Source: a virus (lineage: Duplodnaviria > Heunggongvirae > Uroviricota > Caudoviricetes). Taken from it: a stretch of 36,905 nt of DNA. Positions 15,001 to 24,000 of this stretch are shown here, in pieces. The first letter of the stretch is position 1. Each line of letters begins with the position of its first letter. The stretch is taken from the IMG/VR virus record IMGVR_UViG_2645727604_000018, one strand, 5' to 3'. The position numbers were made by a program.

Positions 15001-18000
15001 GAGGAGAAACGCCGCTTCGTTCACGTAGTTCTTTCATAAAAGAGCCGATCTGGTTATAGGGAAGGGCCGCATGGTGTTTGGTGATCTGAACTTTACTTGG
15101 CTGAGGCAACAGAGGTTTCAGCATACCTTTCCATGCGGCAGGATTATCACCTTCAAAGTATTCTTTGGCCTTGGCGTAATCGATCACTGTTTCAATACGT
15201 CCACGTAGACGACTGGCAGTTTCATTCTTGGTTAACCAGATAGGTTCCAGTATTGCCAGAAGATCGACTTTGGTGATTTCACTAACGGCCTTTTTGCCAA
15301 TGAAAGGGTAGGCATAGGTTTCCAGTGTGGAACGCCATTGCGCGAGATGTTTTTTGTTCTTCATCTCACTGTCTTTGACCTCCAGCACTTCTTCACAACA
15401 TTCGGCAAAGGTCTTTTTCTTCCGGGCCAGTATTTCCTGCCGGGCTTTTTGTTCGTGTTTTTCTTGAAGGGGATTAATACCATTACGGATTTGTTTACGT
15501 AGCTCACGCGCTTTGTCACGCGCTTCGGCTAAGGAGACTTCCGGGTAAGGGCCAAGCCCCATATTCAAACGTCTTGGAACTGTTCTACCGAGATTGTTGA
15601 TTCGGGTTCCCATAGCCACGCAAAGAACCCATGCACGGGACTGATTTCGGATGCGAAGGTATAAACCATCCACATTACCAACCGCATACATGCCTTCGGA
15701 TTTTAATCGTGATACGACGAGTCCTGATAGTTCCTTGGCCCTTTCAATGGCATTCGTCACACTTGATACAGAGTTGGCACATTCCTTGGTATTCTTTAAC
15801 ATTACTTTTTATCAACATCAGAATTTCGCATGTAGAAGGTAATCTAAGGTATTGAAATACTTATTGTTATTGTGATATATATAACATATGCAATGATAAG
15901 CGCATTTATAGTTTGCGGGTAATTTTTATCTTTTACTGATGGTGTTTATTATTAATGATCATTAATGTAATATATATTAAAATTATTTTTATGAGGTTCT
16001 ATTATGTCTGTTAATGATGCCAAAAAACTTGCGGATAAACTTTTCCCAATATTTGATGATGATGATATTTCTATCGTTGATATTCCCCCTGAGCAGCGTC
16101 GATTGCATACCGAGACTTACGATTTTTCAATATCAACACTCGTCGACTATTTGAAAAATGGTACTGTGTTTATTCCTGATTTTCAAAGGAAATATGTTTG
16201 GAGTAGAGGGCAGGCATCAAGATTAATTGAGTCTTTAATAATCCAGTGTCCTATCCCTGTTATTTATTTAAACCAAGAGAAAGATGAGAGTTTATCTGTT
16301 ATTGATGGTAATCAACGGTTGACTTCAATTAAACTATTTATTGAGGATGGTTTTGAATTACAGGGATTGACAGCATATCCAGAATTGGAGGGGAATTCGT
16401 TTTCATCACTGGACGCGAGATTCCGTAGGCATATTTTAAATCGCACATTGAGATGCATAACCATATTAAAAGAAACTCACCCTCAAATTAAAATTGATGT
16501 TTTTGAAAGAATAAATACAGGTGCAGTACAATTAAATCCTCAGGAGGTACGTCATGGAGTTTATCATGGTCCATTATTTACTATGATTGACGAAATAAGT
16601 GAGGAGAAAGTATGGAGAGACTTAACAGGAATTAAAAATGACACACGAATGAAGAATAATGAACTCATATTGAGAGCATTCGCACTTTCATATTCTGTGA
16701 CACCATATAAAAAACCATTAAAGAAATTCCTTAATGATTTTAGTTCTGAAAAACAAAATATTGAACCTGATGTTGCCTTGGAGTGGCGTAGTAGATTTCT
16801 TGGTGCATTAAACTGTATTAATAAATTGTTTGGTAAAAAAGCATTTAGAATTCTAAATGAAAACTTAGAGCCTCAAGTAAGAAATTTCAATTCTGCTTTA
16901 TTTGATGCTCTAATTGTCGGGTTTATGGTATCAAAATTTAATCAGGATATGATAAACGAACTTGATGCAACAAAACTTAAGGATTTCTTAATAGAGTTTC
17001 AAAGAATAACATCAGAGGAGCGTTTTAATGAGTCGATTACTTCTGGCACTTCGGCGACGCAATCGGTTCATTATCGTATTAGCACAATGAAAAATTTCAT
17101 TGAACGGTATTTCAACTGATGGCATATATTAAAAGCGCATCTAGAAAACAATTCGAGCAGATTCATTCCAATTTGCTTGAACAGGTTCGTTATGTTTCAA
17201 AAATAAAAGAATTAAGAACAGATATTATACATAGTGTTTATAATAACGCGATATTTCGAGTTTCTGCTGCATTCGAAGATTATATTAAAGATGTTTTGGA
17301 AGATTGGATTGACATGCTGAACCAAAATAACGGATGCCTTTCGCATCTACCTGATGAAATTATCTTGTTTTCTTTATTCAAAAACCAAGAGAAAAATTTT
17401 ATAAATTACGTTTCTCATGGTTCTGAGTCAATAATGATGAGTGACTTAAATAAGTGTAAGGATAAACTTCAGGCGTTATCGTCACCTAATTCTCCTGTAA
17501 AGCCTGTTATTGTCCCAAAACAGCTGATAATGGATAAAAAATATCCTTCCAAAAAAAATATCAAACTTCTTTTTAATAGATTTGGTATCAAAGATATATT
17601 AAAAGCAATGACTGCGAAAGGTAAAAAAGATTATGAGTTCATGCTCCAGTCTTTCTCTGATAGCCGCACGGAGTTAGCCCATTCATATTCTTCAATTAAT
17701 CTTTCAAAAGATACTGTTATTGATAAGCTAAATAATGTTAAAGAAATTGTTAGGATTATGGATAGGATATTATATTCACATGTCTGTGATAAAAGTGGTA
17801 GTGAATACTGGAAAACAGAACTGTTAGCGATTTAGTATTAATGCGGCTAATATCTTTAGCCGCATTGAAGTTGAAGCAACCTTTGACCACCATGTTTACT
17901 TTTATTGAGCAAACTCAAACGGCCTGACCATCCCATCCCGATTTGCATCAAGATAATCTGCCCACCACTGTAACATCAATCTTCTCTGTTCAAGATGTTT

Positions 18001-21000: not shown

Positions 21001-24000
21001 CTCGCTGCACACAGATAGGCAATTTCCATTGCGATAAAAACAGGAAGAGGTGCAACGCTTAATACTGCCTGGTATTCTTTGTCGGTTACATATCGTTCGC
21101 GGTTTTTGGCCTTGAATTTACTTACACCTGCACATGGGTTAGCCTTGACGTACCCTCGCTCATACCCCCAACTGTAAACACGGGACATACTGCTTTTTTC
21201 ATGGTTGGCTTGCGTTTTACTCTGCTCCCCTCTTTTGTCCATGTATCGACGGATGTGTTCTGGTTTTATGGAATCCGCTGGTACCTTACCGAATACGGCA
21301 AGCAACTTTTTTTGATGTTGCAGATAATCTTTTTGTGTTCTTGGACTAAGGTCACTGTAATAGGCGCTGGCGAGGAATTTTTCCCACAAGCGACCGAATG
21401 TCATTGCACGATCGCGATTATTTACAGTTTCCTCATACTTTTTCCATAAAGCAGCTAAACCATCCTTGATGGCGGTTAGTGTGACAGATTCTCTGGATGT
21501 TGGTTTCCATACATAACTATATTTATTTGGGTATACATTTGGAGGTAATTTTTCGTGTTCAGGATTTTTCCTTCGTCTTCCCATCAGATCGCACCAAAAT
21601 TCGGCTCTACCTCGCGTGGTGGTAAAGTTTTATTGCAGGTAAATAGATCCCGGCTGACAATCGGTTTGCCACTACGATTGGTATAGAACGGAAGCCCGTT
21701 TTCCATTAACCATTTTCGCTGGTGGCTTGCATATTTGCAGCCCGTTAATATTAGCAATTCATCTTCGGTTAAAAATAAGCTGCTCATAGCTATATCTCAT
21801 AACCGCCGCTAACTATATACGGTTAGCGGCAATTAGGGTTGAACATTAAAAATCAGCCTGACTCGGGATCAGTTTTTGCCAGATAGCTGAAACGTATTTT
21901 GCCTGGTAACGAGCGTCATCAAGTGCATTATGGCGCTCACCTTCGAATGGGATAGCAGTTCTGGCATCGAAGTCTATGGCTTTCCCCAGCTCAACGATTG
22001 TGCGTACATCGCGATCGTTGCAGTAGCGCCATGGGCAGGGGATACCCTGTCGTTCGTATGAACGGCGTAAAATCACGTTGTCGAAGTTGGCCCCATTACC
22101 CCAGACCTGAACAAAAAATTCACCGGAGTTTTCGTCGATAAATTCCCGCAATTGCAGTAGTGCATCATCTAACGGGATTTCATCGGTCATAATGGCAGAC
22201 TGCGCTTCACGTGATTGCTTCAGCCACCATTTAATGACGTCACGATCAATGACTCCGCCAGCAGTATCCAGATCGATGGTCTTGCTAAATTCCGGTCCCA
22301 TATCTCCGGTTTGTGGATCGAAAAATATTGCGCCTATTGAGATAATCGGGGCATCGGGATTTTTTCCCATGGTTTCAAGGTCGATCATCAGATGAATCCC
22401 CGCTCTGCTGGTGGATGTGAGCTTATGATGACCATTCACCTTAATTAAGGGATCTGTCGCCTCGCCAGTTTTATTATCGCTGGCGTGATGCTGATTGCCG
22501 CCAGGGTTCTCCTTGTGTGGATGTTCAGCGCCTTCCATTTCCTCCGGATCATTTTCCTGAACTTCAACCTGATTCTCTTCATCGAATGTTTCCTGGTATG
22601 TTGCGTCGCCCATCACCGCGCCACAATCAGGGCAGTTGCCGCCACCGCTCTGACCGCAGGCGGTGCAGACTTTTTCCGGTTCCTGTTGCGCTACTGGTTC
22701 GGATTGTTTCGTTTCTGGCTCGTTTTGTAACGCATTTGGGCTGTTTTGTTCCGCTTTTTGGTCGTTCCGTTCCGATTCATGCTGGTTCTGGTTCACAGAA
22801 TCGCGAGTCTGGATCCCCTTGACCCATTTCGGATCATTAGGGTCGCTAATCCCCTCAACAAATTCACCACGCGATACAGCAAGTAACTTATCGGCGTCAG
22901 GCTGGCTGATATTGGCTGCCTGCATAATTTTGTTTACTTCGTCAGCGGTGACTTTTACTTGGTTAGCGGAACTCACCTGCGACTGAGCATCCAGCGACTG
23001 CGCGTTCTGGCCATGTTCAGTTGTATCCGGTTCCATTGTTTCAGTTGTTGCCTGTTCACCTGCCATTGCGTCAGATGGTTGTGGTTTTTCTTCTTCTGTT
23101 TCACGCTCAGTAACCACCTCGCGGTTAATTTTTTCCAGGATATCTTTTTCCGGCGTATGCCGGGCAGCTGTGAGAGTTTCCTTGCTGGGGTTCTCGTGAT
23201 CAGTTTCCGTCAAATAGGCGTTGATATACCCCTGAAGGCGTCCCGGGTAGTGATAAAATTCAGGGTGTGCGCTTCGGATAAGTGCAAAAATAGCGGCGCG
23301 GGAATAGTCCAGAATACCCGGGGTTGCACGAAGTGCTGCGGACCATTCTTTGAACGGACTTTCTTTGTTCAGGACTACTTCTTTTGCGCGACGATAAACG
23401 CTGCCCGGAATTTCATAAATATTAAAATCCATCGGAAGTGTGGCTGCTGCAATCTCCACATCCAGTGTGTCGAGGGTGTGTACTAAATTCGGATTGCGAT
23501 CGGTTTTGTTCCCACCGCCAGCATTAGCACCGGAAGCCGTGCGGGTGATGCGTGAAACACGATTTCCTTTCATCCACTCTTTTGTCAGCAGACCCCGATC
23601 AGTGTAGTCAGCGTCCAGGTATGCTTCGAAAAAAGCAGTTATTAGTCCCAGGTCTGAATTACCAGGATTAGGGAAAACTTTGTCAGTGTCACGAACCAGT
23701 TTGTGGAGGTCGCGAATCTCCAGCGAGTCGAGCAGACTGGTTTTATGCGAAATAGCCAGGGCAGTAACAGCCGGTAGTTCTTCAGCCCGTGCAATGTGTA
23801 ATGCCTGGAGTTCGTCGCGTGAAACGTGCGTTACTGGTTTTTCGCTGCCGTGTTGAGCAAGCCAACGAATGGGCAGTTCCTGACCGGAGACAGGCAGAAG
23901 CATGCTCTCCTCAATCTCAGTCATGTCTTCGCCGTTGATGTTGGTATTGTCAGTGCTGGCTGGTTTGTCCTGAACAGAGGGGGAAGGGCCGATAAATGTC

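Follow-up and report, generated by a model that had tools for sequence, protein, structure and literature searches.

Two integrative elements in opposite directions at the adjacent tRNA genes asnT and serU, and a second integrase gene inside the asnT island

The asnT-mtfA-serU block and its flanking integrases

The virus record IMGVR_UViG_2645727604_000018 of IMG/VR, assigned to the Caudoviricetes, comprises 36,905 nucleotides, and this whole stretch was analysed and is referred to here as the window. It carries a short block of Escherichia coli chromosome with the genes asnT, mtfA and serU, which is flanked on the left by a genomic island headed by the integrase gene int1 and on the right by a prophage headed by a tyrosine integrase gene of its own. 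A second island integrase gene, int2, is located within the island. The central features are the following:

17902-19170, minus strand: int1, P4-type integrase (open reading frame (ORF) 17902-19236, RefSeq-style start at 19170), with Pfam domains Arm-DNA-bind_3, Phage_int_M and Phage_integrase
19350-19425, minus strand: asnT, tRNA-Asn(GTT) by ARAGORN; the 3'-terminal 24 nt (19350-19373) are the attachment (att) core of the island
19526-20323, minus strand: mtfA, intact core gene (ORF 19526-20362), Pfam Peptidase_M90 over positions 11-243 of 243
20417-20506, plus strand: serU, tRNA-Ser(CGA) by ARAGORN; the 3' 61 nt (20446-20506) are the attL identity block of the prophage
20559-21584, minus strand: prophage tyrosine integrase by Pfam and PHROG, ending 52 nt past the 3' end of serU

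Exactly two tRNA genes, tRNA-Asn(GTT) and tRNA-Ser(CGA), were detected in the window by ARAGORN, with concordant Rfam results. A BLAST comparison with the segment of E. coli K-12 MG1655 revealed a single collinear stretch, window 19343-20521 (1,179 bp, 98% identity), while the DNA on both sides of this block is absent from K-12. As the annotated gene order of MG1655 is yodB-serU-mtfA-asnT-yeeJ, the names asnT and serU are correct. The native chromosome between the two elements thus measures about 1.2 kb.

An original prediction made from the sequence had proposed that two different integrative elements occupy asnT and serU in opposite directions, separated by mtfA and the two tRNA genes alone, and that the core genes are intact. 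The placement of both tRNA genes, mtfA and both integrases by ARAGORN and Pfam bears out this arrangement, and the K-12 alignment, which leaves foreign DNA on either side of the 1,179-bp block, confirms the separator. mtfA encodes a full-length Peptidase_M90 protein and asnT is intact. Both integrases head contiguous foreign DNA in the window as well as in related genomes, so that the prediction withstands its own refuting condition, integrases without such DNA in relatives. Direct repeats of the tRNA 3' ends, proposed as a check, are present in relatives: 24 nt of asnT in strains A31 and E2348/69, and 61 nt of serU in A31.

Boundaries and backbone of the asnT island

The int1 gene starts 180 nt 3' of asnT and shares its orientation. 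Its product is 50% identical to the integrase (Int) of phage P4 over its full length (417 aa, E 2e-153), in agreement with the predicted P4-type integrase beside asnT, and 49% identical to the integrase of the high-pathogenicity island (HPI) of strain CFT073. Both int1 and int2 encode proteins with PF13356, PF22022 and PF00589, i.e. a tyrosine recombinase catalytic domain together with the N-terminal Arm-DNA-bind_3/DUF4102 domain; among the NCBIfam models, nothing scored above cutoffs for the integrases. The part of the island inside the window and its backbone features are the following:

656-19349, minus strand: asnT island, in-window part, with the mobQ/pilV backbone of the PAI-serU (pathogenicity island at serU) family; the far end lies outside the window
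24-644, plus strand: fragment of an IS2-family (IS3 family) transposase OrfB at the left edge of the island; the translation corresponds to the C-terminal region of a DDE transposase
6422-7890, minus strand: mobQ relaxase gene (NCBIfam MobQ), disrupted and split into two ORFs in different frames (frameshift)
9240-9797, plus strand: type IV pilin, island backbone
9850-11313, plus strand: PilV-like tip adhesin, island backbone; the pilin-PilV region 9240-11313 was assigned by Pfam Shufflon_N/N_methyl and by RefSeq annotation of homologous loci

Besides mobQ, the type IV pilin gene and pilV, the backbone comprises traD and a pair of genes encoding an AAA ATPase and its partner. The GC content of the island is low (27-47%), and a hairpin with a T-run of the island's own follows just after the tRNA gene. 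An island of strain E2348/69 matches the window island over 18.8 kb (window 656-19449) with 99.9% identity. Homology to this E2348/69 island begins at position 656, and the first 655 bp of the window hold the IS2-family transposase fragment instead; in genomes which match from window position 1, IS2 or IS3 family transposases are annotated under the match.

The boundaries of the island family can be read from E2348/69 and A31, where a direct repeat of 24 nt, TGGCTCCTCTGACTGGACTCGAAC, corresponding to the 3' end of tRNA-Asn, delimits the element. The outer flank of the A31 island is K-12-like sequence adjoining asnT on the yeeJ side. By register with E2348/69, the distal repeat of the window island would fall about 6.4 kb to the left of the window. 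No second copy of the asnT 3' end was found within the window with a 30-mer and a 16-mer at up to three mismatches, and none of the serU 3' end with a 27-mer and a 14-mer; with no internal att site in the window, junctions of tandem islands are unsupported.

The E2348/69 island is located between yeeN and asnW rather than at asnT. This raises the question whether the window island had integrated at asnW and was brought beside mtfA by an inversion through homologous recombination between asnT and asnW. Such an origin could account for the 99.9% identity to an island which in E2348/69 lies at asnW, between yeeN and yeeO. Moreover, no difference was seen over the displayed 3' 50 nt of the tRNA-Asn genes compared (the three of the E2348/69 locus and the asnT genes of A31, 2013C-3181, KBN10P04869, CFT073 and the window), and asnT (plus) and asnW (minus) form inverted repeats because their chromosomal orientations are opposite. 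However, int1-type islands sit directly at asnT in A31, 2013C-3181 and KBN10P04869, and the attR of the A31 island is flanked by yeeJ-side sequence, which indicates that int1 uses asnT directly. We therefore regard an origin at asnW as rather unlikely. As the E2348/69 copy is found at asnW and the window copy at asnT, the window stems from a strain other than E2348/69, and the island uses more than one Asn tRNA gene.

The prophage at serU

The gene order of the prophage, integrase, exonuclease, cI/cro/cII, replication, RusA and Q, is lambdoid as judged by PHROG matches between 20559 and 35033. The features which define this order, in addition to the integrase gene, are the following:

21846-24287, minus strand: RecE-like exonuclease (813 aa), PHROG/Pfam
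26156-26794, minus strand: cI-like repressor, PHROG/Pfam
26838-27116: cro-like gene, PHROG/Pfam
27113-27538: cII-like gene, PHROG/Pfam
27604-28680: replication O-like gene, PHROG/Pfam
33841-34215: RusA, PHROG/Pfam
34212-35033: antiterminator Q, PHROG/Pfam

The window ends (position 36905) about 1.9 kb past Q. The integrase had been predicted to be lambdoid; this holds for the gene order of the prophage, while the integrase itself has its nearest named phage relative in Int of Salmonella phage ST64B (59% identity). BLAST gave no match between it and P4 Int, and it belongs to a different tyrosine integrase subfamily. Identical integrases (100%) are found in deposited prophage records, and the prophage as a whole shows a mosaic similarity of 95-96% to records of E. 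coli lambdoid prophages. In our collection of 5,426 complete E. coli genomes, no genome matches 80% or more of the prophage half of the window.

The records of vB_EcoS-689R5 and vB_EcoM-606R7 were considered as isolated phages with the same integrase, and the former was inspected. Positions 1-2600 of ON470583.1 ('Escherichia phage vB_EcoS-689R5') contain part of int1, asnT, mtfA and serU, and because this host DNA lies inside the record, it is a prophage excerpt and not a packaged phage genome, and does not attest a viable phage.

In K-12, 2013C-3181 and KBN10P04869 the serU site is empty, since serU runs straight into sequence of the yodB/zinT side. Identity of the window to these empty sites ends at the 3' CCA of serU (20506), followed by imperfect similarity over the next 15 nt (to 20521). 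Strain A31 is 98.5% identical to the window from int1 through the exonuclease gene (17902-26029) and carries at serU a prophage of about 41 kb, which extends from serU to yodB and includes terminase, capsid and contractile-tail genes. Its attR, beside yodB, contains a second copy of the last 61 nt of serU, which reach from the anticodon loop to the terminal CCA.

Two alleles of the serU variable arm, which differ by a compensatory exchange of two bases, were distinguished (allele sites: window 20446-20506, locus L001 22516-22605 and locus L009 about 17021-17081). G..C is present in the window, at attL of A31 and in KBN10P04869; A..T is present in K-12, CFT073, 2013C-3181 and at attR of A31. 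Because attR of A31 keeps the chromosomal A..T while attL and the window have G..C, the phage supplies the 3' part of the tRNA gene, in its G..C version. The G..C allele at the empty serU of KBN10P04869 may be the footprint of a past prophage occupancy.

The second integrase and the 299-bp repeat

A P4-type integrase adjacent to asnT had been predicted correctly; overlooked were the membership of the island in the PAI-serU family, the second integrase, int2, and a 299-bp direct repeat derived from the 3' part of an int1-type gene. Between int2 and int1 lies a pair of genes encoding a DUF262 and a HEPN protein, which had likewise been missed. The features of this region are the following:

14221-14519, minus strand: copy A of the 299-bp direct repeat, 91% identical to copy B, read as the decayed scar of the last ~97 int1-type codons
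14525-15802, minus strand: int2, second P4-type integrase, intact ORF, with Pfam domains Arm-DNA-bind_3, Phage_int_M and Phage_integrase
16004-17119, plus strand: DUF262/GmrSD_N protein, Pfam PF03235; PADLOC NsnA 5.6e-83 and PD-T4-2_A 9e-44
17119-17835, plus strand: RiboL-PSP HEPN protein, Pfam PF18735
17896-18194, minus strand: copy B of the 299-bp direct repeat, the last ~293 nt of int1 and 6 nt past its stop codon

The int2 protein is only 26% identical to int1 and 97% identical (aa) to WP_001298509, the PAI-serU integrase of CFT073. In CFT073, MFDS1006657 and A26, int2 is located at the island end beside the 14-nt serU repeat CCCTCTCTCCGCCA and yodB/zinT. Homology of the window to these serU-type islands ends at about 15740, at the start codon of int2, and the native upstream att region of int2 is replaced at about 15741-15751. 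Within the window, the serU-type att core CCCTCTCTCCGCCA occurs in serU itself and nowhere inside the island. The int2 gene is a pseudogene in genomes of the 2013C-3181 type, and in most carriers.

Copy A lies directly downstream of int2 and contains a premature stop in the int1 reading frame. Its left flank corresponds to the sequence downstream of int1 in KBN10P04869, where asnT-int1 is followed by the sequence which follows copy A in the window, without the int2 cassette. In 2013C-3181 the order is int1-HEPN-DUF262-int2 (pseudogene) without copy A, and the matches suggest that 24 genomes are of this type. In strain A26, whose island occupies serU, copy A joins int2 at an identical junction; the cargo is SIR2/TIR, and int1, DUF262 and HEPN are missing. 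Because of these three comparisons, copy A is best read as an old scar, left when int2 replaced int1 in a lineage of the serU type. The island of the window would then be a later mosaic, in which such a lineage was joined to int1 and the defence module, and int2 would be a relic; we infer this history, including the order of the recombination events behind the mosaic, from the junctions compared. Recombination of asn-type with serU-type islands is plausibly favoured by their shared backbone, their same chromosomal orientation and the distance of about 1 kb between their target tRNA genes.

The DUF262-HEPN module was found in 28 of the 5,426 complete genomes. Annotations under these 28 matches place int2 on one side of the module, and a wider search places int1 with tRNA-Asn on the other.

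Three other explanations for this part of the island were weighed. The first regards the 3.7-kb unit of int2, DUF262 and HEPN genes as a nested element whose integrase targets the 3' ends of int1-type genes and supplies a replacement. It draws on the 299-bp copies of the int1 3' end which flank the segment as direct repeats, and on KBN10P04869, whose island with a single int1 and without the 3.4-kb insert resembles an empty site. This explanation is largely refuted, and we consider it extremely improbable: int2 is the integrase of serU islands, located beside the 14-nt serU repeat in CFT073, MFDS1006657 and A26; the 2013C-3181 type lacks copy A; the copy A-int2 junction exists in A26 at serU without DUF262, HEPN and int1; and copy A is a decayed scar.

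In the second explanation, a mini-island of int1 and the DUF262/HEPN pair was inserted at asnT, a complete int2-type island was joined to it distally, and the inner att site was deleted later. Such a tandem accretion would fit the presence of two P4-type integrase ORFs, both complete and equally oriented at a distance of 3.4 kb, and the collinearity of everything left of int2 with int2-type islands. However, no fragment of an asnT or serU att site is present between the modules, and it is the start codon of int2, not an att core, which marks the limit of homology to serU-type islands. In addition, the mini-island was never found alone, as int2 lies beside DUF262-HEPN in 28 of 28 genomes, and the E2348/69 island has a distal end of the asn type instead of the serU type. 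A tandem accretion is thus unlikely.

The third explanation assigns a function to the two integrases, with int2 acting in trans on serU-type elements or competing with the prophage for serU, or with the 299-bp repeats serving as a recombinational switch by which the int2 and defence cassette could be lost reversibly. We consider this highly doubtful, because int2 has lost its att flank and is a pseudogene in most carriers and because copy A is decayed. The reading which we prefer remains the mosaic with copy A as the scar of an integrase replacement.

As a separate observation, recombination between the two 299-bp copies would delete int2 and the defence pair and generate an arrangement of the KBN10P04869 type. 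In MFDS1006657 (locus L005 1-29924), the int2-type island abuts yodB via a 14-nt serU remnant, and no tRNA gene was detected in the 22 kb to the left of the island; this may reflect a deletion between neighbouring islands.

Cargo genes and further features

The DUF262 and HEPN proteins constitute, by architecture, a PD-T4-2-like pair with a putative function in defence, because PD-T4-2 combines DUF262 with a PF18735 HEPN domain and the PADLOC model PD-T4-2_A was matched. A published compilation enters PD-T4-2 under DUF262 as well as under PF18735 HEPN (PMC10952713). The DUF262 protein scores higher on the Menshen model NsnA, and NsnB and NsnC are not adjacent. The HEPN protein matched no PADLOC model at E ≤ 0.01, including that of PD-T4-2_B. 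Other island genes with a possible cargo function are the following:

4793-6313 and 3848-4780, minus strand: AAA ATPase and partner, candidate defence pair; PADLOC PDC-M62A 5e-23 and PDC-M62B 1.5e-41
11428-13547, minus strand: MvdC/MvdD-like ATP-grasp gene (12627-13547, Pfam ATPgraspMvdD) and three small ORFs downstream of it

The AAA ATPase pair gave weaker PADLOC matches to PtuA/PtuB of Septu. It adjoins mobQ, the backbone position which holds tcpC in CFT073. The ATP-grasp protein matched the NCBIfam model for an ATP-grasp ribosomal peptide maturase below the curated cutoff, and its cluster had no PADLOC match; it may be a graspetide-type cluster for a ribosomally synthesised and post-translationally modified peptide or cargo of another kind. 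A small divergent ORF (13884-14150) lies beside this cluster.

In relatives, the integrase-proximal slot of the island is occupied by SIR2 and TIR genes (A26), a gene for a dsDNA-nuclease-domain protein (2013C-3181) or genes for large hypothetical proteins (CFT073).

Further features of the prophage are the following:

21584-21787, minus strand: small DUF4224 gene, RefSeq annotation of homologues
24932-24983, minus strand: DicF RNA, Rfam gathering-score match
28721-29143: Ren-like gene, PHROG/Pfam
29382-30716, minus strand: FRG-domain protein (444 aa), PADLOC candidate PDC-S15 (E 2.7e-99)
31342-31516, plus strand: hok/sok (Rfam: sok), Rfam gathering-score match
32779-33828: DUF968/HNH, PHROG/Pfam
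35805-35995, plus strand: STnc100 small RNA (sRNA), Rfam gathering-score match
35996-36057, minus strand: AgvB, anti-GcvB sRNA, Rfam gathering-score match (STnc100 and AgvB: 146 and 96.5 bits)

The gene of the FRG protein belongs to a moron of low GC content, which separates the replication genes of the prophage from its nin region.

Two probable independent integrations into neighbouring tRNA genes

The arrangement very probably arose when two elements integrated site-specifically, and independently of each other, into neighbouring, divergent tRNA genes, each in the 3' part. In the mechanism which we propose, the 3'-terminal 24 nt of an Asn tRNA gene would be the site at which a mobilizable-type island (mobQ, traD, pilin, pilV) recombined via int1; the insertion would regenerate asnT and leave int1 180 nt downstream. 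A lambdoid phage would recombine via its own tyrosine integrase with serU, so that its integrase gene would be left 52 nt downstream and the last 61 nt of serU, which reach back to the anticodon loop, would be replaced by a phage-borne copy. The opposite directions of the elements follow from the divergent orientation of the two tRNA genes. The island itself would be a mosaic of the PAI-serU family which kept int2 internally beside the decayed 299-bp int1 fragment, with int1 and the PD-T4-2-like DUF262/HEPN pair as its putative functional outer module. The role of int1 and the phage integrase as catalysts of the two integrations is proposed from their sequences and positions.

Several points weigh against this interpretation. 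A twin of the island is found at asnW in E2348/69, and the window island could have reached asnT via recombination of Asn tRNA genes. The attR sites of both elements lie beyond the window. Furthermore, the island may now be immobile: as mobQ is frameshifted in the window and an IS2 fragment lies at the left edge, it is probably no longer mobilizable, and mobQ is annotated with an internal stop in E2348/69 as well.

Comparison with known systems

The asnT-mtfA-serU region, predicted to be a dense integration hotspot, is indeed known as such. In published genomes, the serU island is found at serU and the HPI at asnT with an inter-island region of about 1 kb, and the locus was described as a recombination hotspot and a 'bastion of polymorphism' (PMC5521745). 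PAI-serU and PAI-asnT are tabulated for strains 536 and CFT073, with PAI-CFT073-serU at 2194512-2216563 (PMC7545054), and serU is a standard site of lambdoid prophages in Shiga toxin-producing E. coli (STEC) O145:H28 (PMC7067040). Published genomes thus already contain the arrangement, both types of elements and this very island, with near-identical counterparts of both elements, and the dual-integrase mosaic with its PD-T4-2-like cargo is a matter of annotation details and not a new kind of system.

Beyond annotation the significance is small, as the region is a documented hotspot in extraintestinal pathogenic E. coli (HPI/PAI-serU) as well as in STEC (serU prophages). The annotation is corrected in that the island belongs to the PAI-serU family but has been re-targeted to genes for Asn tRNA, and contains a second integrase and an int1 scar; annotators are cautioned against reading two islands into the presence of two integrases. 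The case illustrates the exchange of integrase and cargo modules between islands at neighbouring tRNA sites. The integrase-proximal slot hosts putative anti-phage cargo, which is the PD-T4-2-like pair in the window and SIR2/TIR or nuclease genes in related islands.

With the uropathogenic E. coli (UPEC) strains CFT073 and 536, which carry the HPI and PAI-serU, the window shares the occupancy of both asnT and serU in opposite directions, with mtfA (the ~1-kb 'region A') in between; in contrast to them, it lacks the HPI, and its serU holds a lambdoid prophage. The island backbone (mobQ-traD-pilin-pilV) is collinear with that of the PAI-serU (TcpC island) type of CFT073, MFDS1006657 and A26, and int2 is shared. 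Unlike these islands, the window island is located at asnT via another P4-type integrase, and integration at the 14-nt serU repeat does not apply to it; a tcpC/TIR gene is not annotated in the 99.9%-identical E2348/69 island.

The island of the enteropathogenic E. coli (EPEC) strain E2348/69 (O127:H6) shares int1, DUF262/HEPN, int2, the 299-bp scar and the disrupted mobQ with the window. It differs by its location at asnW and by the absence of IS2 at the position matching window 1-655, and E2348/69 is absent among the best matches for the serU prophage of the window. In the enterohaemorrhagic E. coli (EHEC) strain O111:H- 11128, in O111:H8 and in A31, the same two integrases flank asnT-mtfA-serU with 97-98% identity. 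A coverage of 80% or more of window 17500-22000 was reached by 15 complete genomes, and many O111 strains are among the carriers of both integrases. A31 carries a mobQ/pilV island of the int1 type together with a related prophage of 41 kb, with att repeats that are defined; its island, however, has a single integrase and other cargo, and its prophage diverges after about 5.5 kb and has a frameshifted integrase gene.

With phage P4 the island shares the domain architecture of Int, to which int1 is 50% identical over the full length, and the position of the integrase gene beside a tRNA 3' end. The target in the window is an Asn tRNA gene and not the attachment site of P4 itself, and no P4 genes for replication or helper exploitation are present in the window or in the annotations of homologous islands. 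Finally, the adjacent DUF262 and PF18735 HEPN genes correspond to PD-T4-2 of Vassallo et al. 2022, as summarised in a later source (PMC10952713), from which the pair in the window differs by a HEPN partner without a PD-T4-2_B match and by a DUF262 protein which fits NsnA better.

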